Of a DNA stretch of 64,000 nt, positions 9,778 to 38,759 are shown piece by piece. Origin of the DNA: Escherichia coli (GTDB lineage: Bacteria; Pseudomonadota; Gammaproteobacteria; Enterobacterales; Enterobacteriaceae); NCBI RefSeq assembly GCF_016026235.1, contig NZ_CP065613.1, one strand, 5' to 3'. Below the pieces are notes generated by a model, which saw only the letters and a list, made by a program, of their open reading frames with translations, did no database searches and was not told the DNA's origin. Each line of letters begins with the position of its first letter. Position 1 is the stretch's first letter. The translations under genes and the position numbers were made by a program.

Positions 9778-10464
9778 ATGACCCCAATAAACATATTTAT
9801 GACAGTTGCTGATTTCAAACGGCCCAAATTGGAGCTCCCAAACGGGGCAAACAAACTACTACTGCACTCTTGCTGTGCTCCATGTTCCGGTGAGGTGATG
9901 GAGGCGCTTCAGGCCTCGGGAATCGACTACACCATCTTTTTCTACAACCCGAACATTCATCCTCAGAAAGAGTATTTAATTCGTAAGGATGAGAATATTC
10001 GCTTTGCTGAACAACACGGCGTGCCGTTTATTGATGCTGATTACGACACAGACAACTGGTTTGAACGAGCCAAAGGAATGGAATGGGAGCCCGAACGAGG
10101 GATCCGTTGCACCATGTGTTTTGACATGCGTTTTGAGCGGACAGCGCTGTACGCCGCTGAAAATGGTTTCAGTGTGATCAGCAGTTCACTGGGCATTTCA
10201 CGCTGGAAAAATATGCAGCAGGTTAACGACTGTGGGCGGCGAGCCGTCGCGCATTATCCGGGCATGGTGTACTGGGATTATAACTGGCGCAAGCAGGGCG
10301 GCTCGTCCCGTATGATTGAAATCAGCAAGCGCGAAAAATTCTATCAGCAGGAATATTGTGGCTGTGTGTATTCTCTGCGCGATACCAATCTACACCGCAA
10401 ATCTCAGGGACGCCCTCTTATCAAAATTGGTCAACTCCACTACGGTAAAGAAGAGAAGGAGTGA
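9778..10464 (+). CDS. QueH-like (DUF208) epoxyqueuosine-reductase family protein
   Basis: 228 aa; motifs [11 protein letters not shown] and CGC recalled as typical of QueH/DUF208. Confidence 0.65.
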
Positions 10465-11422: not shown

Positions 11423-12022
11423 ATGGCACATATACAACTGGTCAAACAAACCTCTTCCGGATTACTTCTCCCGGCGACGCCGGAGAGTTGCGATTTTCTG
11501 CATCAAATCAAAATAGGTGAGTGGATACACGCAGACTTTAAGCGTGTGCGTAACTACGCATTCCACAAGCGTTTTTTCAAACTCCTGCAACTGGGTTTCG
11601 ATTACTGGACTCCGGTCGGTGGGGCGATCACGCCTCGCGAACGAAAACTGGTGTCCGGTTTCGTTGATTACCTGTGTGAATCAGTAGGCCGGGAACATAC
11701 GCCAGCTCTGAGCGAAGCCGCAGAGCAATATCTGAATACAGTTGCGACACGCAGAACCCGTGATACGGCATTGCTAAAGTCGTTTGAGGCTTTCCGCGAG
11801 TGGGTAGCCATTCAGGCCGGATTTTACACCGAGCATTTTTATCCGGACGGTAGCCGTGGGTGTCGGGCGAAATCTATCGCGTTTGCGAATATGGACGAAA
11901 CCGAGTTTCAGCAGGTTTATAAATCTGTACTGAATGTGCTGTGGAACTGGATTCTGTTCCGTAAATTTTCCTCTCCGGAACAAGTCGAAAATGTGGCCGC
12001 GCAGCTGCTGGAGTTTGCGTAA
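11423..12022 (+). CDS. nin-region protein (DUF1367-like, tentative)
   Basis: ORF 11381..12022 with start placed at Met 11423; stop overlaps next start (ATGA-type). Confidence 0.45.
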   Translation: MAHIQLVKQTSSGLLLPATPESCDFLHQIKIGEWIHADFKRVRNYAFHKRFFKLLQLGFDYWTPVGGAITPRERKLVSGFVDYLCESVGREHTPALSEAAEQYLNTVATRRTRDTALLKSFEAFREWVAIQAGFYTEHFYPDGSRGCRAKSIAFANMDETEFQQVYKSVLNVLWNWILFRKFSSPEQVENVAAQLLEFA

Positions 12023-19602: not shown

Positions 19603-20236
19603 CAGTATCACGGAAATTATTGCGGCGCTGGAGCGTTACAGTGAAATCATCACCCCCTGGGCGACAAAGGTCGCGGAAAACTTTACTGCGGACCTAACCC
19701 GGCAGAACGAGAAAGTTTGGCGGCAACACAGCAAGAACATCAGTCGCGAGCTCCGCAATCTTGTGGAAAGCGCTCCTGTGGGCCAGGTGATGCAATCCAT
19801 CATCGCCGAACAGGTCAAGTACATCAAATCTCTGCCTCTCGAGGCCGCAGACAGGGTGTACGACATCCAGAACAAAGCGATAGAGGCTGTTGTCACCGGT
19901 GGTCGGGCGGAGCAGTTTGCTAAAGAGATTGCATCTACCGGCGATGTTGCTAAGTCTAGGGCCGATCTGATTGCCCGAACGGAACTGGGAAGAGCAACGG
20001 GCGCGCTGGATATGGCCCGAGCGATAGCTATTGGCTCGGATGGTTATATTTGGCGTACAGCCGATGATGGCGATGTCCGAGATTCCCACGATCACATGAA
20101 AGGTAAATTCGTCCGCTGGGATTCACCTCCAACTTTGGACGGCATGACCGGCCACGCGGGCGAGCTGCCAAACTGCCGCTGCTATAAAGAGATCGTGTTT
20201 GTTCGCGTTCCATTCGCAATGAAAAGGGCAGCATAA
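19454..20236 (+). CDS. Head morphogenesis protein (Mu F / SPP1 gp7-like)
   Basis: 260 aa ORF; no in-frame ATG downstream of portal stop, so it overlaps portal 3' end by ~149 bp in another frame. Confidence 0.6.
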   Translation: MPKMKRRPASANLMTNRRSRQAEIRYRTSLRRIARAVGDIVNGRYDGSNDSITEIIAALERYSEIITPWATKVAENFTADLTRQNEKVWRQHSKNISRELRNLVESAPVGQVMQSIIAEQVKYIKSLPLEAADRVYDIQNKAIEAVVTGGRAEQFAKEIASTGDVAKSRADLIARTELGRATGALDMARAIAIGSDGYIWRTADDGDVRDSHDHMKGKFVRWDSPPTLDGMTGHAGELPNCRCYKEIVFVRVPFAMKRAA

Positions 20237-20239
20237 CCC

Positions 20240-21460
20240 ATGAAATACTTTTTTGAGACCAGGCTCGGGGAAACCCGATACCGCCTGGCTGACGGCTCGT
20301 TGCTGTGCAAAGACGTGCCGATAGGACGAACAGGTAAGCAGCTCTATGGTGCTGATGACCTGCCAAAACTGAAACCCGATAAGTTCGGTGAAATAGTCGT
20401 CACGCGTTCTCCTGAGCAGGTATTCCATCCGGCCACGCTTGCCTCATTCGAAGGGATGAGCATCACGATCCTGCATCCTGAAGATGAAAACGGGAATGTG
20501 CGGCTGGTAAATCCCGAGAACTGGAAAGAGCTTGCTGTCGGGCACCTCCAGAATGTCCGGCGCGGGACGGGTGAGCAGTCTGATTTGATGCTGGCTGACC
20601 TTATCGTCAAAGACGAAAGCGCCATTCAGCTTATCGAAGATGGCCTGCGCGAAGTGTCGTGCGGCTATGACGCGGAGTACGAGCAGACCGAGCCAGGTAA
20701 AGCCGAGCAGGTCGATATTACCGGAAACCATGTGGCTCTTGTCCCTAAAGGCAGAGCCGGAAATCGTTGTGCAATTGGAGACAGAGACACAATGGCAAAT
20801 CAAAAGAAAAACTGGTGGAACCGCATGCGTGCGGCCATCAAGACAGGAGATGCCGACACCATGAACGAACTGGTGGAGTCGGCTCCCGCATCGGTTACAG
20901 GAGATGAGGGGGATTTGCCGCAGGGCGTTAATCTCAACATCAACCTGTCCCCGCAGCAACCACTACCGGACAAAGCACCAGAGATGGGCGGAGATCCAAC
21001 CGGCGACAGTGATGATGACCTCAAAACATTACTGAAAGCCCTGCTGGCTAAGCTGGAAAGAAATGCCACGGGCGATAACGATAATAAGCCTGACGATAAT
21101 CCGACCGGTGACGGCGAGGACGATGAAGAGGAAACCACGATTACTGGTGACTCAGCCTGGCGTGCCGAAGTTATCGTTCCGGGTATCGATCTGAGCCGTA
21201 AGATGAAACCGACCGCGTTCAAACGCGAGGTTCTGGCTTCTGCTGACAAAACGCTGGTTCGCCAGATAGTCGGTGATGCGGATATCCGCAAATTACCGAA
21301 ACAATCGGTCGACATGGCGTTTAATGCCGTGTCTGAGGTTGCCAAAGGGCGAAACACCCGCGCCACCACCGGCGATGCACAGCGCCTAAACATGGGCATG
21401 ACCAGTATCGCTTCCCTGAACAAACAAAACGCTGAATTCTGGGCAAGCCGTAAAGGGTAA
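20240..21460 (+). CDS. Scaffold/prohead-protease-like protein
   Basis: 406 aa; acidic repeat-rich C-terminal half typical of scaffolds. Confidence 0.5.
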   Translation: MKYFFETRLGETRYRLADGSLLCKDVPIGRTGKQLYGADDLPKLKPDKFGEIVVTRSPEQVFHPATLASFEGMSITILHPEDENGNVRLVNPENWKELAVGHLQNVRRGTGEQSDLMLADLIVKDESAIQLIEDGLREVSCGYDAEYEQTEPGKAEQVDITGNHVALVPKGRAGNRCAIGDRDTMANQKKNWWNRMRAAIKTGDADTMNELVESAPASVTGDEGDLPQGVNLNINLSPQQPLPDKAPEMGGDPTGDSDDDLKTLLKALLAKLERNATGDNDNKPDDNPTGDGEDDEEETTITGDSAWRAEVIVPGIDLSRKMKPTAFKREVLASADKTLVRQIVGDADIRKLPKQSVDMAFNAVSEVAKGRNTRATTGDAQRLNMGMTSIASLNKQNAEFWASRKG

Positions 21461-24095: not shown

Positions 24096-24485
24096 ATGCC
24101 GACTCTTGATGTAACAGATGTGCTTTTTGACCCCGATTTTTGCGACTTCAATTTGTGGGTAACACGCCGTGTGCAAACGGTGGATGAGGATGGGATCGGC
24201 AGCGACAGCGAAGTTAAAAAGCAGTTTGCCGGAGTCGTTACTGTTGATCGCTCTCTGGAAAACCGTCGTATGCAGGCCGGGCAGGTAATCAGTGGTGCAA
24301 TTCTGATTGTGACGACTGAGCGACTGACGCAGGGACAGACTGGCCGTGATGCCGATATCGTGACGTATCAGGGCCGTGATTATCGTGTGACTTTCGTCGA
24401 CCCGTATACAGCGTATGGTGCCGGATTCGTTCAGGCGCATTGTGAGTTGCTGCCGTTTGATGGGGGAATTCCGGTTGAGCAATAA
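24096..24485 (+). CDS. Tail completion/neck protein
   Basis: 129 aa ORF. Confidence 0.5.
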   Translation: MPTLDVTDVLFDPDFCDFNLWVTRRVQTVDEDGIGSDSEVKKQFAGVVTVDRSLENRRMQAGQVISGAILIVTTERLTQGQTGRDADIVTYQGRDYRVTFVDPYTAYGAGFVQAHCELLPFDGGIPVEQ

Positions 24486-25023
24486 CACCAGCACAGAGCG
24501 CGGATGGCTGATACCAACCAGTGGCGATCCGGATTATGACGAAGCGCTCGACAGGCTGTTAAGCCAGTGGATGCGTAACGTTTCCGGTCTGTCTGCCGGG
24601 ATGGTTCGTCCGCGCTGGCAGAAAGAGCAGCCGCCACTGCTACCGGCTGAAACGAGCTGGTGTGCGTTTGGGGTTATCGGATGGTCAGGTGATGACAGTC
24701 CGGCATTCACCAGACAGACCGATGATGGCTCTCAGCTCTGGCGGCATGAAACGATTGAGTGTATGGCTTCGTTTTATGGTCCGGCGGGGATGGTGTATGC
24801 GTCCCGGTTTCGTGACGGTATATCTGTGCCGCAGAACAATGCAGCACTGAATGCGCTGGGGCTGTCTCTTGGCGATTACACAGGTCTGACTCCCTTCCCT
24901 GAACTTATTAATCAGCAATGGGTCCGCCGCTACGATATGACGGTGCGTCTGCGCCGGAAGGTTGTGCGCGAGTACGGTATTAAATCGCTGGTGGAAGCAC
25001 CAGTCATCTTTTTCGGAGATTAA
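24460..25023 (+). CDS. Neck/tail-terminator-like protein
   Basis: ORF 24415..25023 with start placed at ATG 24460. Confidence 0.5.
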   Translation: MGEFRLSNNTSTERGWLIPTSGDPDYDEALDRLLSQWMRNVSGLSAGMVRPRWQKEQPPLLPAETSWCAFGVIGWSGDDSPAFTRQTDDGSQLWRHETIECMASFYGPAGMVYASRFRDGISVPQNNAALNALGLSLGDYTGLTPFPELINQQWVRRYDMTVRLRRKVVREYGIKSLVEAPVIFFGD

Positions 25024-30167: not shown

Positions 30168-31208
30168 ATGTCGAAAAACTGGATGCGTCACTTTGAATTA
30201 TTGCTTGTTGATGATAAGGGCGACGGGATAAAAATTTCTGAGCTTAAAGTCACTTTCAATATTCAGAAAATGCCTGCGACCATATTTAATGGATTTGTTG
30301 GAAATTTTAAGGTTTATAACCTGTCTCCTACCACTCAGAACCGGATTATGCAGAAGGAGTTTTCGCGTATACAGGTTATTGCCGGATACAAGGGGCAACC
30401 GGATGCAGCAGGTAATTATCCTGATGAAAACGTTGGTATGATATTCAATGGAGATATCCGTTTTACTGTCACTGGTAAAGATAATGCCACAGACAGTTGG
30501 ATCATGTTGCAGTGTATTGACAGCTGGGAAGGCCACCTGAACGCAAGTGTGAAAACCACAGTGGCTGCTGGCTGGAAGTACAGCGATCTTTTCAGTCTGG
30601 GTATGAAATCATTCGAACCATATGGCATCGAATCCGGTGCAGTTCCTGACATGCCTGAAACGGTATTTCCCCGAGGTCGCGTTGTTTATCAAAACACATC
30701 AAGGTTGATGAATCATATCGCAGGGCAGTGTAAAGCTAACTGGTGGTATGAAAATAATCTGGTAAATATTGTTCCTGAAGATAAATATATTGGTGTTGCT
30801 ACGGTGTTGAATGCTAACACCGGGCTTATCAGTATGCCACAGCAGACGATGGGAGCTGGCGTAAATGTCAGATGTCTGATTAATCCAAATATTAAGCTCG
30901 GTGGGCTTATTCGTCTGGATCAGGCATCTGTATACCGTGCCTCTTTGAGTAATGACCAGGTAGCGAAATCGCCAGCACGACTGGATGAGTCTGAAAGCGA
31001 CGGTAATCTCTACGTTAACGGTCTGCCAGGCATGTCACAGCCTGCCAGCATTAATACTGACGGTGATTACATTGTGGGCAGCATTGATTATACTGGCGAC
31101 ACCCGAGGGCAGGCGTGGTATATGGACCTGCTTTGCCTGGCTAAAGGGAGTAAAAGTTTACTCACTCCTGATACGATAGCGAAAATAAGTGGGGTACCAA
31201 ATGCTTAA
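30168..31208 (+). CDS. Baseplate hub-like protein
   Basis: 346 aa ORF in baseplate module. Confidence 0.5.
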   Translation: MSKNWMRHFELLLVDDKGDGIKISELKVTFNIQKMPATIFNGFVGNFKVYNLSPTTQNRIMQKEFSRIQVIAGYKGQPDAAGNYPDENVGMIFNGDIRFTVTGKDNATDSWIMLQCIDSWEGHLNASVKTTVAAGWKYSDLFSLGMKSFEPYGIESGAVPDMPETVFPRGRVVYQNTSRLMNHIAGQCKANWWYENNLVNIVPEDKYIGVATVLNANTGLISMPQQTMGAGVNVRCLINPNIKLGGLIRLDQASVYRASLSNDQVAKSPARLDESESDGNLYVNGLPGMSQPASINTDGDYIVGSIDYTGDTRGQAWYMDLLCLAKGSKSLLTPDTIAKISGVPNA

Positions 31209-31443
31209 ATGGATCTTATTACTGGTATATTTTGTGACTTTGTCTTCTGTGGCTGCGGTAACATGCACCACTTCAAATACAGGAACAACTTACTGTACTG
31301 GTACAGACAGTAGTGGTTCTACAGTTAAAACAGAATCTTATACAACCAATACAGGTACTACGTATACCACAGGAACGATTAATGGGAGTGCAGTACATCG
31401 TGAATGCCAGGCGACCAATACTGGCACAACGTACTGTAATTAA
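31201..31443 (+). CDS. Small secreted Thr/Gly-rich repeat protein (moron candidate)
   Basis: ~80 aa from ATG 31201; hydrophobic signal-like N-terminus; three NTGTTY(C/T) repeats with Cys. Confidence 0.45.
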   Translation: MLKWILLLVYFVTLSSVAAVTCTTSNTGTTYCTGTDSSGSTVKTESYTTNTGTTYTTGTINGSAVHRECQATNTGTTYCN

Positions 31444-31885: not shown

Positions 31886-31910
31886 AACCCGCCTTCGAGT
31901 GGGTTTTTTG
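31886..31910 (+). terminator. Intrinsic terminator
   Basis: aacccgc...gtgggtt hairpin followed by TTTTTT. Confidence 0.45.
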
Positions 31911-31928
31911 CTTTCTGGAGGCATATGA

Positions 31929-32681
31929 ATGCCAGTTTCTTTAAGCGCTCAACTTGGTAGCAAAGAACAGGCCGATGTAAGACTTGCTGGCTCTGTCATG
32001 TCGGCGCTGCGTGTTTCTATGCCCGGCATCGTCCAGTCATTTGATCCGGACACGGTAACGGTAGTTGTTCAACCAGCGATTAAAGGCTATGAGCCAGACT
32101 CAAATGGAATCAACCAGTCGACGACATTACCCTTGCTGGTGGATGTGCCAGTGGTATTCCCGCGCGGCGGAGGCTGTACGTTGACTTTTCCGGTAAAAGC
32201 CGGGGATGAGTGTCTTGTCGTTTTTGCCGATCGTTGTATTGATTTCTGGTGGCAGAGTGGCGGGATACAGGAGCCGGTTGATGACAGAATGCATGATTTA
32301 TCGGATGCGTTTTGTATTGTAGGTCCCCAGTCGCAGGCGAGGAAGATTAGCGGTATTAATACCAGTGCCACACAGTTGCGTAGTGACGACGGCAGTACCT
32401 ATTTTGAGCTTAATCCTGATACCAGGAAAATTAAAATTGTCGCTCCGGGTGGTCTTGATGTGGTTGCCCCTCTGGCTGATTTTTCTGAGAAAGTAACCAT
32501 TCATGGCCTGTTAACCTGGATGGGTGGCATGGTGGGGTCTGTTGTTTCTGGTGTGGCTTCAAAAATCACTGGTGCTGTTGAGTTTTTGGGTAGCGTGAAG
32601 GCTAACGGCAAGCCAATCGATGATACGCACACTCATGGTGGTGTTCAGCGCGGTGGAAGCAATACCGACGGAGTAAACTGA
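31929..32681 (+). CDS. Baseplate spike/gpV-like protein
   Basis: 250 aa; Gly-rich C-terminus; precedes gpW-like and J-like genes. Confidence 0.5.
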   Translation: MPVSLSAQLGSKEQADVRLAGSVMSALRVSMPGIVQSFDPDTVTVVVQPAIKGYEPDSNGINQSTTLPLLVDVPVVFPRGGGCTLTFPVKAGDECLVVFADRCIDFWWQSGGIQEPVDDRMHDLSDAFCIVGPQSQARKISGINTSATQLRSDDGSTYFELNPDTRKIKIVAPGGLDVVAPLADFSEKVTIHGLLTWMGGMVGSVVSGVASKITGAVEFLGSVKANGKPIDDTHTHGGVQRGGSNTDGVN

Positions 32682-33034
32682 TGCGATACAGACGTGAAGA
32701 CGCCGATGGCGATTACACCTTTGGCAGCGGTGATGACACCTGGCTGATTAACTCACCGGAGGCCGTGGCGCAGGCGGTAAAAACGCGATTCGAATTGTGG
32801 TATGGGCAATGGTTTCTCGACACCACCGAGGGGACTCCGTGGATCCAGTCCGTACTCGGTAAGCAGAAGCCGGAAACCTACAACCTGGCGATCCGTAAGC
32901 GCATCCTCGAAACGCGGGGCGTTAAATCAATCCTCTCTTTCAATACTACGGTGGATACCACGACCCGACGTGTCAGGTTTTCCACTGAAATCGACACTCT
33001 CTATGGAATAACGACTGTTACATCGGAGGCGTAA
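32681..33034 (+). CDS. Baseplate wedge gpW-like protein
   Basis: 117 aa ORF with ATGA overlap. Confidence 0.5.
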   Translation: MRYRREDADGDYTFGSGDDTWLINSPEAVAQAVKTRFELWYGQWFLDTTEGTPWIQSVLGKQKPETYNLAIRKRILETRGVKSILSFNTTVDTTTRRVRFSTEIDTLYGITTVTSEA

Positions 33035-34233
33035 TGGCTCTGAACCTTGATTCTCTCGGTTTATCTGCAAAGGTAACCGCGGAGGGGATCAGTGCGCCTG
33101 ATTATCAGACGATACTCAGCACCCTGATTAGCTATTTTCAGCAGATTTATGGTAGTGATGCCTACCTCGAACCGGACAGTAAAGACGGTCAGATGGTGGC
33201 TCTGATGGCGCTGGCGATTCATGATGCCAATAATATGGCTATAACTGTCTACAACTGTTTTTCACCGGCAACCGGCTATGGGGCTGCACTGACCAGTAAC
33301 GTGAAAATAAATGGTATTTCACGTAAAGGCGCGACGAACTCTACGGTTGATTTGCTTCTTACAGGAACAGCCGGAACAACCATCATTAATGGCAGCGTGA
33401 AAGATGGTAATAATGTGATATGGCGTTTGCCTGCGTCAGTGGTGGTCGGTGTGGATGGTACAGTGATGGCGACCGCAAGATGTTCCGTCAGTGGTGCAGT
33501 GGCGGCGCTGGCTGGAACTATCACTGAAATTAATACGCCAACCCGTGGCTGGGTTTCGGTAATTAATCCTGCTGCGGCTACTGTTGGCTCTCCGGCAGAA
33601 ACTGATGCTGAGTTACGTATCCGCCAGTCGCAAAGTGTTGCGTTGCCATCAATAACCCCATTTGAAGCACTGGATGGTGCTGTTTCTAATGTTGCCGGTG
33701 TAACCCGCCACAAACTCTATGAAAACGATACTGGTTCGGAGGACGGTAACGGGTTACCGCCACACTCTGTTGCTGTAATTGTGGATGGCGGTGATGTGAC
33801 GGATATTGCTCAGGCTATCAGAGGGAATAAAGGCCAGGGGACAGCCACTCACGGTACAACATCCGTTACGGTTCCGGATAAATACGGCAATCCCCATGTA
33901 ATCAAATTCTCGCGTTCCAGTGATGTGCCTGTTTATGCCCGGATTAAATTAAAAGTTTTTACGGGTTATACCTCACAGATAGGGCAGCAGATCCAGCAGG
34001 TTATTTCCGACTATATCAATAGTCTGACGATTGGTGATTCGGTCCTTTTAAGTCGCATTTACTCACCGGCGAATCTTGGCGTGGTGAGTGGCGGGAATGC
34101 ACGCTATTACGATATTCAGGAGCTGACGATTGGGAAATCCCCGGGGGCTTTGTCGTCATCAAACATTGATATCAGATACAACGAATCTGCGTCCTGTACC
34201 CCGGAAAATATCGTTATAACGGTGGAGTCATGA
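33034..34233 (+). CDS. Baseplate J-like protein
   Basis: 399 aa ORF. Confidence 0.55.
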   Translation: MALNLDSLGLSAKVTAEGISAPDYQTILSTLISYFQQIYGSDAYLEPDSKDGQMVALMALAIHDANNMAITVYNCFSPATGYGAALTSNVKINGISRKGATNSTVDLLLTGTAGTTIINGSVKDGNNVIWRLPASVVVGVDGTVMATARCSVSGAVAALAGTITEINTPTRGWVSVINPAAATVGSPAETDAELRIRQSQSVALPSITPFEALDGAVSNVAGVTRHKLYENDTGSEDGNGLPPHSVAVIVDGGDVTDIAQAIRGNKGQGTATHGTTSVTVPDKYGNPHVIKFSRSSDVPVYARIKLKVFTGYTSQIGQQIQQVISDYINSLTIGDSVLLSRIYSPANLGVVSGGNARYYDIQELTIGKSPGALSSSNIDIRYNESASCTPENIVITVES

Positions 34234-34910
34234 GCAAATACACCGAACTAATCACGAACTACCACGCCACCAAACCTAAATTTCTTGCGCATGTTGATCT
34301 GATGACTCGGCCACTTATTGATGTTGCGGCTGCCACCAGAGGGCTGATTACTGCATTTGATATTGACTCTGCGGTTGGTGTGCAACTTGACATTCTGGGA
34401 TTGTGGATCGGACGTAGCCGTGTTGTCAGCCAGCCTATCTCAGGTGTCTATTTCAGCTGGGATACCGACGGGCTTGGATATGATCAGGGGGTATGGCAGG
34501 GACCATACGATCCTGATTCCGGATACATGTACCTCAGCGATGAAACTTATCGTGTCATTCTTAAAGCGAAGATTGCGATTAATAACTGGGATGGACGGAA
34601 TGATTCGCTTCCGGCAATTCTTGACGCTGCAACAGCAGGATCCGGGCTGCGAATGCAGATAGTCGATAATCAGGACATGACGATATCGGTCTGGGTCTTT
34701 CCTGATACTGATATTTCAGATGTATCGTGTGAGTTAATTGCGGCAATTAAACAGGGGTATCTCACAGTAAAAGCCGCCGGGGTATGGGCGGGTGGCATTG
34801 AAACACCTTCGGTGGAAACCCCATCGGAAGGCTCAAAATTTTTTGGTTTTGATATGGATAACGAATTCATCAGTGGTTTTGATGTAGGAGCATGGGGAGT
34901 ATTACTCTGA
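34230..34910 (+). CDS. Baseplate/tail-fibre adaptor protein
   Basis: 226 aa ORF. Confidence 0.5.
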   Translation: MSKYTELITNYHATKPKFLAHVDLMTRPLIDVAAATRGLITAFDIDSAVGVQLDILGLWIGRSRVVSQPISGVYFSWDTDGLGYDQGVWQGPYDPDSGYMYLSDETYRVILKAKIAINNWDGRNDSLPAILDAATAGSGLRMQIVDNQDMTISVWVFPDTDISDVSCELIAAIKQGYLTVKAAGVWAGGIETPSVETPSEGSKFFGFDMDNEFISGFDVGAWGVLL

Positions 34911-36166
34911 TGGCGAAAAATGACTTTAAAGCGTTTGCAACGGGTAAAAATGCCAATGTTATGTCGCAGGAGGAATGGGAAGCGTTGCCTGCGCTTTTAT
35001 CCGGATTTACAGCAGGGAAAGCATCCAGTGCGCAAGTCAATAAGGTTATTCGGCAGGCCAGCTTTATTGCTGCAGCTCTGGCCCAGTTTGTAAGTGACAA
35101 AACGCAACGGGATGTGCTTGATAATGGTGATCTGCCCGGTTTTGTTGAATTGCTGGGATCGGGGTTTGCTGTTGAATACCTGAGCCGCAAGAATCCGTTT
35201 GGCGATATCAAATCGGATGGCACGGTGAAAACGGCTCTCGAAAACCTTGGTTTACAGGAAACGGTAAACAAGGCTGGTAACGCTGTCCAAAAGACAGGCG
35301 ATACCTTGTCCGGTGGACTTACTTTTGAAAACGACTCAATCCTCGCCTGGATTCGGAATACTGACTGGGCAAAGATTGGTTTTAAAAATGATGCCGACAG
35401 CGATACTGATTCATACATGTGGTTTGAAACAGGTGACAACGGCAATGAGTATTTCAAATGGAGACACCGCCTCGCTGGCGGCCAGCTCAAAGAGCTGATG
35501 AATCTTAAATGGGATTCACTAAATATTCTGGTTAATGCCGTCATTAATGGTTGCCTTGGCATTGGTACGACGAATGCGTTAGGTGGAAATTCAATTGCTT
35601 TCGGGGATAACGATACCGGCCTGAAACAGAACGGCGATGGTCTGCTGGATGTTTATGCGAATGGACAGCATGTATTTCGTTTTCAGAATGGCGTGGCTAT
35701 TGCTTTTAAGAATATTCAGGCCGGAACTGCCAGAAAATTCACGTTATCCAGCGCCAACAACTCCACGAAAAATGCAGCGTTTTGTTTGTGGGGTAATCCA
35801 TCCAGGCCTGTTGTTGCAGAGCTTGGTGATGATTCAGGCTGGCATTTTTTCAGCCAGAGGAATACAGATAACAGCATCACGTTCGCCGTAAACGGACAGG
35901 TAATTCCGTTAAATTACGGAAACTTCGATGCCCGCTATAAACATCGAACTGAGGGGGTACAGGATGTGCGATATGGCCATGAAATGTATTACGGCCCCGG
36001 CAGTAACACCGTTTCGTGGACATTTCGCGCACCTTCGGGACACGGGCTGTCAGGGGTAAAGATATCGGATACCCACCGTAACTCAGCGGATAACGTTGAC
36101 GGTGTGTATTACCGACCGCTGCAAAAACTGATTAATGGTACCTGGTATAACGTGGCGAGCGTTTAA
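34910..36166 (+). CDS. Tail fibre protein
   Basis: ~418 aa from ATG 34910 overlapping previous stop; followed by assembly chaperone. Confidence 0.6.
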   Translation: MAKNDFKAFATGKNANVMSQEEWEALPALLSGFTAGKASSAQVNKVIRQASFIAAALAQFVSDKTQRDVLDNGDLPGFVELLGSGFAVEYLSRKNPFGDIKSDGTVKTALENLGLQETVNKAGNAVQKTGDTLSGGLTFENDSILAWIRNTDWAKIGFKNDADSDTDSYMWFETGDNGNEYFKWRHRLAGGQLKELMNLKWDSLNILVNAVINGCLGIGTTNALGGNSIAFGDNDTGLKQNGDGLLDVYANGQHVFRFQNGVAIAFKNIQAGTARKFTLSSANNSTKNAAFCLWGNPSRPVVAELGDDSGWHFFSQRNTDNSITFAVNGQVIPLNYGNFDARYKHRTEGVQDVRYGHEMYYGPGSNTVSWTFRAPSGHGLSGVKISDTHRNSADNVDGVYYRPLQKLINGTWYNVASV

Positions 36167-36168
36167 TT

Positions 36169-36714
36169 ATGTTACATTTAAAAAATATTACAGCGGGTAA
36201 TCCAAAAACTGTTGAGCAATATCAGATGACAAAACGATATTCGGTCACCTGGCTTTTTTCGGAAGACGACAAAAACTGGTATGAAGAACTGAAGAATTTC
36301 GCCAGCGACACAATAAAAATAGCTTACACCGGAGACGGTCGTGTGGTGTGGGTCGGTAAGGATGTGACAGGCATCGAGCCACGCAATGCCAGTGTTATTG
36401 AAGTTCCTGATATTACCGCTAACCGACGGATTACCGCGCCGGGTTACTGGTTTTACCGCAATGATGAATTTGTCTTTGACTACAGACTCAAAGCGGAAGA
36501 TGAGCGTGATGCCCTTCTGGCTCAGGTCAGTGCCCGGACAGGGGAATGGGAAGAAGACCTGCTGCTGGGGTTAATCAGCGACGAAGATAAAGAAAAGCTG
36601 AAAGCCTGTCGTATTTACGCGAAATCACTGCAGGCGATGGATTTCAGCGCCATCACTGATAAATCCTCATACAACGCCATTGAATGGCCCGTCTCTCCGG
36701 AAGGTTCTTCCTGA
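36169..36714 (+). CDS. Tail fibre assembly chaperone (Tfa-like)
   Basis: 181 aa directly downstream of fibre gene. Confidence 0.55.
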   Translation: MLHLKNITAGNPKTVEQYQMTKRYSVTWLFSEDDKNWYEELKNFASDTIKIAYTGDGRVVWVGKDVTGIEPRNASVIEVPDITANRRITAPGYWFYRNDEFVFDYRLKAEDERDALLAQVSARTGEWEEDLLLGLISDEDKEKLKACRIYAKSLQAMDFSAITDKSSYNAIEWPVSPEGSS

Positions 36715-36737
36715 TTTAATTTATCGCGAGAAAAACA

Positions 36738-38006
36738 ATGTCTGTAGTGATATCAGGTGCGCTGACTGATGGCGCAGGTATCCCCATGTCCGGATACCAT
36801 ATTATTCTGAAATCCCGGGTAAACACCCCGGAAGTGGTTATGCACACTGTTGCTGATGTGATGACAGGAAACGATGGTGAATACTGTTTCCATGCGCGGA
36901 CTGGAAAATATGGTGTGTATCTGAAACAGGACTGGCGCAACGAGTACAACGTTGGCGACATTGCTGTATATGAGGACTCAAAGCCCGGCACGCTGAATGA
37001 CTTTCTGATTGCTCCTGATGAGGGCGACCTGAAACCGGATGTCGTCAAACGCTTTGAGGAAATGGTGGCGCAGGCGCAGCAGAGCGCCGGGGCCGCAGCC
37101 GGAAACGCACAGCAGACGGCGCAGGATGTGGCGGCAGCCGCAGGTTATGCCCGCGCAGCAGAACAGGCCAAAAATGACATTGATGCTGCGCTGACCGGCA
37201 CTCTGAAAACGGCTAACCATCTGTCTGAAATCGCAGCAGCAGGCGAAAAGGCACAACAGAAGTCCCGGGATAATCTGGGGCTGAAAAGTGCAGCCACGAT
37301 GGAAGCACAGAGCGACATTTACGACCGGACAAAAGGCCGTCTGGCGATACCCGGCGCATTCGGCTTTGGGCGTGCTTTTCTGCCTGAAGATGTTATCCGT
37401 TTTGACACTAAGAGTGATTTCCTGGCCTGGGTAAGGAATGCGCTGCCAGGTGAATATTCCGTTGCTGGCCCCTACGACATCATCATACCCGACACACGGT
37501 TTGAAGGGGTGCTCAGCATCCGGTGGACTGATGCACGCCCTGAGACAACAGAACCGCGGTACAGAGCCAAATCCCTTACTTTTTACGGCATTAACGGCCC
37601 CATTTATCACACCCGCTACTGCTACTGGCCCATATCCAGACTGACTGGCTGGGTGAAAATAAATATAACCACAGAAGATATTATTTACAGAATCGTGGCG
37701 AGCTCTGTCCGCAACAGATGGGGAGACCCTGACATTGGCGGGCTGATTATTGCTGCGTACCAGGGAGAAGCTGACGGTGATAAAGTCATCAGACTTGTCA
37801 GGGGGCAGTCATACAGAGGCTCACGACTGGGACCGGTGGGGATTTCAGTGCCCAGTACTCCCACCGGAACGTATATAGCATCCCCACAATTTTTCATTAC
37901 GGGATGTTCAGAGCATTCATTACCGGGGTCATATTGCGCCCTGTCCGGGGTGCCGGATGCACATGTCTCTGGCGCAATGCCCGGGCTTTTTATTCGCACA
38001 TCGTGA
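36738..38006 (+). CDS. Second tail fibre / side-fibre protein
   Basis: 422 aa; Ala/Gln-rich segment AQAQQSAGAAAGNAQQTAQDVAAAAGYARAAEQAK. Confidence 0.55.
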   Translation: MSVVISGALTDGAGIPMSGYHIILKSRVNTPEVVMHTVADVMTGNDGEYCFHARTGKYGVYLKQDWRNEYNVGDIAVYEDSKPGTLNDFLIAPDEGDLKPDVVKRFEEMVAQAQQSAGAAAGNAQQTAQDVAAAAGYARAAEQAKNDIDAALTGTLKTANHLSEIAAAGEKAQQKSRDNLGLKSAATMEAQSDIYDRTKGRLAIPGAFGFGRAFLPEDVIRFDTKSDFLAWVRNALPGEYSVAGPYDIIIPDTRFEGVLSIRWTDARPETTEPRYRAKSLTFYGINGPIYHTRYCYWPISRLTGWVKINITTEDIIYRIVASSVRNRWGDPDIGGLIIAAYQGEADGDKVIRLVRGQSYRGSRLGPVGISVPSTPTGTYIASPQFFITGCSEHSLPGSYCALSGVPDAHVSGAMPGLFIRTS

Positions 38007-38016
38007 GGAATGCACC

Positions 38017-38580
38017 GTGGAAATTAAAAAAATCATTAATCCCCGTTATACCGAAAGTGGCGCAGTAGACTGTGACGTTTTTTTTGACGACAGGGACCAG
38101 GCAGTTCCCTACACAGCCACCGCTGATGATGTCGCACCGACGGGTCAGCAAATCTGGCAGGAACTGCAAAGTGGCAAATGGGGTGAGATAGCCCCATTCA
38201 CTGTGACACCAGAAATGCTGGAAGCGGCCAGAGAGGCCAGACGTCAGGAAATTGAAGCATGGCGCACAGAACAGGAGGCGAAGCCGTTCACGTTTGAATG
38301 GAACGGTCGTATCTGGAATGCTGGCCCCGACTCACTGGGCCGCCTGTCCCCGGTAGTCATGCTGGCAAAATCTGTCACAGCACAAACACATATGGCGTGG
38401 AGCGATGCCGATAATCAGCAGGTGAAACTGTCGATGCCGGAACTGGAAGAACTGGCGGCAGCAATGGTGCAGGCGCAGGTCGATCGCAACGATGAGATTT
38501 ATCGCCGTCAGCGTGAAATGAAAGAGGAGCTGAGCGGTCTGGATGATTTGGCTTCAATTCGGGCGTTTGACGTTGAGTAA
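38017..38580 (+). CDS. Second tail fibre assembly chaperone (GTG start)
   Basis: ORF 37957..38580; GTG at 38017 preceded by gaggaa SD. Confidence 0.5.
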
Positions 38581-38759
38581 TGAATAAGCCGCAACTGGCG
38601 GAATCACAGAAGACCGCTTTGCTTACCGAAGCGGAGTCTGTCATCCGGCCGCCGGGGCGTGCTGTCAGGCTGAACAGGGAAACGGATGAATCCGGGGAGG
38701 CCCGGGGGCGGGCCTCTGTTTTTCCGGAGTCAGTCCGGTCTGTGGTTTATGCGATGTGA

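Follow-up and report, generated by a model that had tools for sequence, protein, structure and literature searches.

Do two tail-fibre genes that stand in tandem upstream of a broken DNA invertase represent the arms of a host-range switch that has become fixed, or do they equip one particle with two fibres? This question is raised by positions 34910-38580 of the 64,000-nucleotide (nt) stretch of DNA analysed here (contig NZ_CP065613.1), in the following called the window. The window is part of an Escherichia/Shigella-type chromosome and carries a prophage from its left edge to approximately position 41172. The early genes of this prophage are lambdoid (RecE-like exonuclease, Rha, DnaC-like protein, Q antiterminator and lysozyme), and its structural genes are of the contractile-tail type. 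On the grounds of sequence comparison and of analogy to characterised phages, we consider it rather likely that the segment forms the mosaic end of the late operon of this prophage, and that it specifies two different receptor-binding fibres which would be made together and not alternately.

A two-fibre kit lying over an old Mu-type switch is ordinary phage mosaicism. Every component family is already known, the order of the module has been sequenced in phage phiP27 and is annotated in RefSeq, and the mosaicism of tail fibres at conserved motifs and crossover sites is long established. Specific to this locus are a hybrid crossover site that is resolved to the base pair, a conserved dual-fibre module which overlies a G region of the Mu type and looks at first like a broken switch, and a link between the second cassette and several ipaH loci. 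The reading as a two-fibre module matters for prophage host range and for annotation, while the practical value is modest and no new mechanism is opened.

Two unrelated fibre cassettes in one module

The segment is filled, with the same bounds as in the original prediction, by four uninterrupted open reading frames (ORFs) on the + strand. Fibre 1 (34910-36166, 418 aa) is a mosaic baseplate fibre that matches Mu S (5yvq_A) with E = 4e-66. It is followed by Tfa1 (36169-36714, 181 aa), which belongs with the Mu U/U' chaperones for tail-fibre assembly (Pfam Caudo_TAP, 2e-26; 5yvq_B, 6e-36). The second cassette comprises fibre 2 (36738-38006, 422 aa; PF08400, 2e-70) and a DUF4376 protein (38017-38580, 187 aa; PF14301, 1e-16; PHROG 1141), the presumed chaperone of fibre 2. 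The prediction of two fibres in one orientation, each with its own chaperone, is thus borne out by the ORFs and by the family matches, which are much too strong to be due to chance. Gaps of 2, 23 and 10 nt between the four genes are operon-like, and the stop codon of the preceding gene for a DUF2612 baseplate wedge protein (34230-34910, + strand; Pfam DUF2612, 6e-47) overlaps the ATG of fibre 1 (TGATG). No promoter-like site was found between the two cassettes. The first good terminator of the cassette region lies 3' of the fourth gene, a hairpin on the + strand at 38696-38717 with nine pairs, seven of them G-C, followed by the T run GTTTTTCC; it probably marks the end of the late operon.

No similarity could be detected between fibre 1 and fibre 2, or between Tfa1 and the DUF4376 protein; the cassettes are therefore neither duplicates nor alternative alleles. 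This also answers the comparison of C-terminal fibre domains that had been proposed as a check of the switch. A further proposal, the match to known receptor-binding domains, succeeded for the tip of fibre 1, which is of the Mu S type, and failed for the C-terminal domain of fibre 2, for which PDB sequences gave no match. The GC content steps from about 46-48% in cassette 1 to 52-57% in cassette 2 and to 31-42% in the 5' half and upstream region of the adjacent ipaH gene, which marks three compositionally distinct blocks.

The same four-gene order was found in nine other phages and prophages, on three other tail backbones and without an invertase: phiP27 (L54-L57), pPE4 (gp67-70), Rac-SA53 (tail1-4), and the prophages ETEC4090, VL46, C311, STEC276, AQ15 and 401651. 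In these nine relatives the module adjoins attachment (att) sites or host genes. As what would speak against a switch, the original prediction had named two fibres that are both required components of related phages with no invertase association; as far as the invertase is concerned, this is the situation in the nine relatives. At least 80% of the Tfa1/fibre 2 junction is covered in 68 of 5426 complete E. coli genomes. In gene order, single-strand arrangement, position at the end of the late operon and conservation of the Tfa1/fibre 2 junction, the window locus agrees with a dual-fibre module of the phiP27 type.

The conservation is unevenly distributed over the proteins, as seen from the comparison of the window with eight of the module-bearing relatives. 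Baseplate J, representing the three other backbones, is only 19-30% identical, and the fibre 1 anchor is unrelated. Identities rise to 73-97% for Tfa1, 82-97% for the N-terminal domain of fibre 2 and 67-95% for the DUF4376 protein, and drop again to 29-55% in the fibre 2 tip, apart from VL46 with 100%. The length of fibre 2 varies from 422 to 1061 aa across the modules. On the nucleotide level, 35762-37132 shares 84% identity with pPE4 and with the ETEC4090 prophage; with phiP27, the figure is 79% over 36112-37105. Judged by this pattern, the block of fibre 1 tip, Tfa1, fibre 2 and DUF4376 gene is a portable module. The ratio of nonsynonymous to synonymous substitution rates (dN/dS) lies between 0.10 and 0.32 in the conserved parts of the four genes and reaches 0.47 for the whole of fibre 1 against a close relative (L008); both cassettes are under purifying selection.

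The best known relatives are phiP27, Rac-SA53 and pPE4, which share order and orientation (fibre, Caudo_TAP chaperone, PF08400 fibre, DUF4376 protein) as well as the position at the extreme right end. For phiP27 the identities amount to 73% (Tfa1), 82% (N-terminal domain of fibre 2) and 75% (DUF4376 protein). All three differ from the window in their baseplate, which is Mu-type or other, and in the fibre 1 anchor; the shaft and tip of their fibre 2 are 29-31% identical to the window's, with total lengths of 490-1061 aa in contrast to 422 aa here. Unlike the window, they have no crossover site, no ipaH gene and no relic of an invertase.

Fibre 1 itself consists of a backbone-specific anchor (residues 1-115) and a Mu S-type shaft and receptor-binding tip (residues ~110-418). 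Residues 109-261 are near-identical to Mu S 166-314 in 5yvq_A, the C-terminal tip is homologous, and the protein extends to the end of the tail-fibre PHROG profiles. It further contains a trimerisation domain of the T4 gp34 type. With a Mu S-like distal fibre and a Caudo_TAP gene 2 nt downstream, cassette 1 has the composition of a Mu S/U-type cassette; Tfa1 is 45% identical to Mu U' and 39% to Mu U. In the RefSeq record NZ_CP065615 (L001), which is of the enteroinvasive E. coli (EIEC) type and 99.9% identical to the window over 31900-41500, the Prokaryotic Genome Annotation Pipeline (PGAP) splits fibre 1 into two partial pseudogenes. Since the ORF is uninterrupted there (20111-21367) and identical to that of the window, we regard this call as an annotation artefact of the mosaic structure.

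In fibre 2, a PF08400 collar/anchor domain (residues 1-131) is joined through a short shaft rich in Ala and Gln to a receptor-binding domain at the C-terminus. The PF08400 score of 235 bits against a gathering cut-off of 26.6 places the N-terminus among the lambda Stf-type domains. Here the protein matches lambda StfN (9e7m, E = 7e-16) and the collar spike gp40 of phage XM1 (7kjk, E = 7e-6), with residues 1-212 aligning to residues 1-207 of gp40, and it follows PHROG 2636 through the last profile position. A PDB sequence search with the C-terminal domain yielded no useful match, and fibre 2 does not show the T4 gp37-like tip matured by a Caudo_TAP Tfa.

The gene following fibre 2 was assigned to the DUF4376 family with 61.7 bits for PF14301 (cut-off 25), covering residues 90-195 of the 207-aa mechanical ORF. 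This ORF starts at ATG 37957 and would overlap fibre 2 by 50 nt. Most likely, translation starts instead at GTG 38017, six bases behind a GAGGAA ribosome-binding site and 10 nt past the fibre 2 stop codon; residues 1-187 of the resulting protein align to positions 4-190 of the 194 positions of PHROG 1141. PGAP also places the start at the overlapping ATG. A frameshift as the origin of the 50-nt overlap was considered and rejected, as GTG 38017 gives the 187-aa length seen in the relatives. Homologues of 187-190 aa follow fibre 2 in 9 out of 9 relatives, and their sequences were compared for eight of them. A chimeric 3' end, formed with the tfa fragment that lies downstream, was likewise rejected; the C-terminus aligns with the homologue in L009. 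The PDB sequence search with the DUF4376 protein gave nothing useful. In Alteromonas phage V22 (gp26/gp27) and in the H-fibre locus of Campylobacter CJIE1, the fibre gene is followed by a protein of ~190 aa with a C-terminal DUF4376 domain, and these proteins are experimentally required chaperones (PMC7289586, PMC10579305, PMC7882524). By this analogy, the DUF4376 protein is presumed to be the chaperone of fibre 2; the likeness consists in Pfam family membership only, and the V22 and CJIE1 fibres are unrelated to fibre 2.

A hybrid crossover site and other relics of a Mu-type switch

The closest relative of the tail backbone is vB_EcoM-606R2, with 97.8% identity over window positions 32126-35253. 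Downstream of its DUF2612 gene, this phage carries a 264-aa fibre with its tfa gene, an inverted tfa gene with an inverted fibre fragment, and a DNA invertase, together with two inverted Hin/Gin-type sites (10111-10136 and 11933-11958 in its record, L003). The homology to the window stops at 35253 and returns only at 41063-41171, in the first ~95 nt of the invertase gene (83.5%).

The point where the homology stops falls into a crossover site of the Hin/Gin/Pin type, CTCTCGAAAACCTTGGTTTACAGGAA (35235-35260), which lies in frame in fibre 1, where it encodes the motif ...LENLGLQE (residues ~110-117). It holds the sole perfect AAACCNNGGTTT core of the 64-kb window. Its left half-site is the outer half of the left site of 606R2, while its right half-site is the inner half of Mu gix. 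In a four-way alignment, the window tracks 606R2 up to the core and Mu directly after it; the match to Mu starts at 35238, and 35238-35550 is 85% identical to Mu Sv. The constant anchor and the variable distal part of fibre 1 are separated inside this site. According to the alignment, the two parts of fibre 1 were fused at a Gin/Pin crossover site. The locus thereby provides a clean example of an invertase crossover site as the splice point at which fibre ends are swapped between unrelated phages.

Two further relics follow downstream of cassette 2. The first is a 99-nt fragment of a Mu U-type tfa gene (38591-38689, + strand; codons ~113-145; 80.6% nucleotide identity to Mu U), located inside a 59-aa ORF (38580-38759) with a weak Caudo_TAP match and a full-length match to phrog_7784. 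The second is the stub of a Gin/Pin-type serine invertase (41078-41172, + strand), which comprises ~31 codons beginning with MLIGYVRVSTNDQNTDLQRNA... and matches Pfam Resolvase (6e-4) and the PHROG DNA invertase family (7e-19); the first 82 nt of Mu gin agree with it to 84%. The cassettes had been described as ending next to this remnant, which was not confirmed: the U fragment, the hairpin and a 1.8-kb ipaH gene on the - strand intervene, and the stub lies 2.5 kb downstream.

Crossover sites were searched for with the core pattern, a scan with the 26-nt consensus and a repeat finder, and the controls, Mu and 606R2, each gave two inverted sites. No partner site was detected in 38500-41200, the best candidate in 34000-41500 agreeing with 13 of 22 consensus positions, i.e., at background level. 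Inverted repeats of at least 20 nt flanking the cassettes are absent, and the imperfect pairs of 14-18 nt are at chance level. Of the crossover sites expected at both flanks of the cassettes, only the one inside fibre 1 was found. An intact serine invertase next to the segment is missing as well, ~31 codons being left, and so is an inverted, N-terminally incomplete fibre segment with its tfa gene: both cassettes are on the + strand, and what can be seen of such an arm is the U fragment, again on the + strand. With one site and no invertase, no inversion is possible.

The locus shares several features with the Mu G segment, namely the in-frame site at the ...NLGLQE motif with a right half-site as in Mu gix, the Sv-like stretch, the U/U'-like chaperone, and the U fragment and gin/pin-like 5' stub further downstream. 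It differs from Mu in that the single site, the missing inverted arm and the shortened invertase leave it unable to switch, and in that a second complete fibre cassette and ipaH occupy the place of U'-S'v. The C segment of P1 with cin, the P region of e14 with pinE and the 606R2 switch belong to the same group as Mu G. The ancestry from a switch is real, and the switch is extinct, with one hybrid site, no inverted arm and no invertase. Of the collapsed or fixed switch originally proposed, the site, the U fragment and the invertase stub remain, but the cassettes are not its two arms.

In an EIEC relative (L007), a full-length pinE gene stands at the position of the stub, and the match of the window to L007 ends at 41171. 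EIEC strain VL7S7 carries the module and ipaHb, followed by a full-length pinE gene with an internal stop codon next to yfhH; the yfhH host flank is also present in the 606R2 record, and relatives have the same prophage end beside yfhH and tadA. As the relatives keep a full-length pinE, the 31-codon stub at the pgl region is a later truncation. In the window, the prophage ends beside pgl (41462-42463). Between them, in 41172-41461, the invertase frame is lost after ~31 codons and the upstream region of pgl follows, with no insertion sequence (IS) element and no recognisable att site.

Taken together, the following history may be reconstructed. The ancestor would have carried an invertible segment of the Mu G type, such as is still found in vB_EcoM-606R2. 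The module would then have overwritten this segment by recombination at the left crossover site and at a point further downstream, and the ipaH cassette would have taken the place of the inverted arm. Finally, the invertase presumably lost everything beyond codon ~31 in a deletion or rearrangement that also brought the prophage up against the pgl region.

Proposed attachment of the two fibres and competing readings

How could both fibres be mounted on one contractile tail? XM1 offers a precedent of a simple myovirus with receptor-binding sets on the baseplate (gp18 on gp17) and on the collar (gp40), and its authors note two such sets on the phage (PMC10457771). The baseplate J protein of our prophage matches XM1 gp16 (E = 9e-16), and its DUF2612 protein matches the wedge protein gp17 (7kh1_A2, E = 8e-5), which anchors the baseplate spikes in XM1 (PMC10457771). 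By analogy, the DUF2612 protein is probably the docking partner of fibre 1, since the gene of fibre 1 comes directly after the gp17-like one and the N-terminus of fibre 1 changes along with the backbone. Fibre 1 would thus dock on the wedge and be matured by Tfa1, while fibre 2 would use its N-terminal domain to ring the tail or neck and would depend on the DUF4376 protein for its maturation. One late transcript for both fibres would provide two receptor specificities at once. The joint production is suggested by the homology to XM1 and Ur-lambda. The collar of Ur-lambda, which carries four fibres, is built from twelve StfN domains at the gpV/gpM junction (PMC12617516), and XM1 gp40 binds the neck via an immunoglobulin (Ig)-like N-terminal domain of ~100 residues, followed by a coiled coil (PMC10457771).

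Both model systems also differ from the window. The XM1 tailspikes are encoded far apart and not in adjacent fibre-chaperone cassettes, and the XM1 neck proteins have no sequence match here. With the Stf and Tfa proteins of Ur-lambda, the locus has in common the StfN homology and the fact that a distal fibre 2 with a DUF4376 gene takes the place of stf/tfa in lambdoid EIEC prophages. In contrast to lambda, the tail is contractile and the chaperone is a DUF4376 and not a Caudo_TAP protein; to the T4 gp37-like tip of lambda Stf (PMC12617516), no link from the C-terminal domain of fibre 2 was found in PDB sequences.

The lambdoid EIEC prophages are informative in a further respect. Their gene order is J, lom, a PF08400 fibre gene and a DUF4376 gene, followed by ipaHd or ipaHe, and they are 98-99% identical to the window from 37133 (fibre 2 residue ~132) to 39542 (3' half of ipaH). 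Their fibres carry a different, lambda-Stf-like N-terminal allele, which is roughly 40% identical to that of fibre 2, as judged by eye and not computed. The fact that cassette 2 stands alone after J and lom argues against a need of fibre 2 for fibre 1, and as the N-terminal allele differs between siphovirus and myovirus, the anchor domain goes with the tail type. From the near-identity beyond residue ~132, a recent exchange of distal fibre 2, DUF4376 chaperone and ipaH between siphoviral and myoviral prophages appears probable. The second cassette had been suspected to be a horizontally acquired alternative fibre; its horizontal acquisition is in agreement with these data, its role as an alternative arm is not.

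Several points weigh against two fibres mounted side by side on one tail. The attachment of fibre 2 to a contractile tail is deduced only from the homology of ~100-200 N-terminal residues (E = 7e-6 to gp40). The candidate tail terminator (24415-25020) has no phage match in PDB sequences, XM1 included, so that a neck-docking partner gains no support from sequence. Between myovirus backbones with only 19-30% identity in baseplate J, the N-terminal domain of fibre 2 keeps an identity of ~82%, a conservation that a simple co-variation with a partner in the backbone would not predict. The prophage lacks its right end, and in sister strains the same genes are affected by IS insertions or deletions, so that a role of these genes in a virion may already have been lost in this host. 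Moreover, in what order and by what mechanism the replacements took place is a matter of reconstruction, and the recombination at the crossover site could have been mediated by an invertase or could have been ordinary recombination at a short conserved sequence.

Rival readings were weighed as well. The cassettes might be alternative arms, like Sv-U and S'v-U' of Mu, which became fixed in direct orientation upon loss of the invertase, with one real fibre at a time. The crossover site in fibre 1, the Mu-U fragment and the invertase stub would fit, as would the live-type switch that 606R2 has at the same position. Arms such as Mu S'v, however, lack an N-terminus and are inverted, while fibre 2 lies in direct orientation with its own ATG and a complete PF08400 anchor, and no crossover site is found at its 5' end. 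Considering also that the two fibres and the two chaperones are unrelated, that the identical direct tandem occurs in nine phages and prophages without an invertase, and that cassette 2 exists alone in lambdoid prophages, this reading is already largely refuted and we regard it as hardly tenable. It is very improbable, too, that both genes build one compound fibre, branched or in two segments, in which the N-terminal domain of fibre 2 docks on fibre 1 or Tfa1 and not on the tail. It is true that a block of ~1.4 kb, from the fibre 1 tip over Tfa1 to the N-terminal domain of fibre 2, moves as one piece and is 84% identical across myovirus backbones which share only 19-30% in baseplate J, that fibre 1 possesses the gp34-type trimerisation domain, and that Mu Tfa has been reported to remain on the fibre tip (cited in PMC7882524). 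Yet in lambda Stf and XM1 gp40 the homologous domains attach to rings of the tail or neck and not to fibres (PMC12617516, PMC10457771), the Mu S-type tip of fibre 1 is complete and has a chaperone of its own, PF08400 fibres work in lambda as well as in the lambdoid ipaHd and ipaHe prophages although a fibre 1 is absent there, and the N-terminal allele switches with the tail type.

A different matter is whether the cassettes still have a function here. They could be inert cargo of a defective prophage which has not yet decayed, with selection keeping ipaH; this is compatible with the origin as a module, and we think of it as possible, though doubtful. It would agree with the truncated invertase and with the fusion of the right end to the pgl region, with an IS2 copy in fibre 2 of L007 and the deletion of cassette 2 in L014, with the IS1/IS2 insertions and pseudogenes among the structural genes of L001, and with the mostly partial homologues in Shigella database entries. 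On the other hand, none of the four ORFs is damaged in the window, and L001 and L008 have them in identical or near-identical form; the terminase (503 aa) is apparently of full length, like other structural ORFs, and dN/dS (0.10-0.47) is well below 1 even against the close relative L008.

ipaH and further features of the window

The gene between the fibre module and the invertase stub (38760-40586, - strand) encodes an ipaH-family type III effector of 608 aa. Its LRR_TTSS N-terminus (Pfam 6.5e-17) and NEL E3 ligase C-terminus (Pfam NEL 2.5e-75) identify it as an IpaH/NEL effector, and in the near-identical RefSeq record PGAP names the gene ipaHb. It is a moron, separated from the stub by an AT-rich spacer of 490 nt. 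The position of effector genes after the tail-fibre genes of prophages is textbook knowledge (PMC3530523); a literature search for ipaH, tail fibre and invertase together found no paper.

The junction between cassette 2 and ipaH is of special interest. A stretch of 240 nt (38551-38790), which includes the 3' end of the DUF4376 gene, the Mu-U fragment, the hairpin and the 3' end of ipaH, is 99.6-100% identical in the ipaHa, ipaHb, ipaHd and ipaHe loci of nine EIEC-type genomes (with L014, L015 and L016 among the loci concerned). All that a deletion has left of cassette 2 in the ipaHa locus of L014 is the 3'-terminal 117 nt of the DUF4376 gene. In view of this shared junction and the identity over 37133-39542, chromosomal ipaH paralogues seem to travel with the fibre-chaperone cassette. 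We tentatively put forward, as a rather doubtful conjecture, that the tandem block is a portable two-site adsorption kit of a baseplate fibre and a collar fibre with their chaperones, which moves between unrelated contractile tails, and that distal fibre 2, DUF4376 gene and ipaH are, in Shigella and EIEC, a sub-unit exchanged between siphoviral and myoviral prophages. If this were true, the spread and diversification of ipaH would be mechanically coupled to recombination hot spots of tail fibres, old crossover sites included. The junction common to ipaH and the fibre 2 chaperone gene may therefore interest those who study the spread of Shigella effectors.

At 40946-40981, some 375 nt before the start of ipaH, lies a perfect palindrome of 16 nt whose loop measures 4 nt. 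On the ipaH strand (- strand, 40978-40962) it contains GTACTGTTTTTTTAAAG, which has two mismatches to GTATCGTTTTTTTANAG, which we take to be the MxiE-box consensus. As far as the sequence suggests, the palindrome may be a regulatory site for type III secretion-dependent expression of ipaH.

Some further observations concern other parts of the window. A small ORF between the baseplate hub and spike genes (31189-31443) has a hydrophobic N-terminus and Thr/Gly-rich repeats (NTGTTY..., three times); near the equivalent position L001 has two IS1 copies, which the window does not contain. The ORF at 9778-10464 belongs to the QueH family (epoxyqueuosine reductase; Pfam 1.9e-65), an unusual cargo for a lambdoid early region. 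Finally, a second lambdoid prophage lies in 50297-64000. It begins with a tyrosine integrase gene (50297-51367, - strand) next to ybhC on the att-lambda side of the gal-bio region, and in a related record this prophage has xis, Ea22-like, kil, cIII and N genes.

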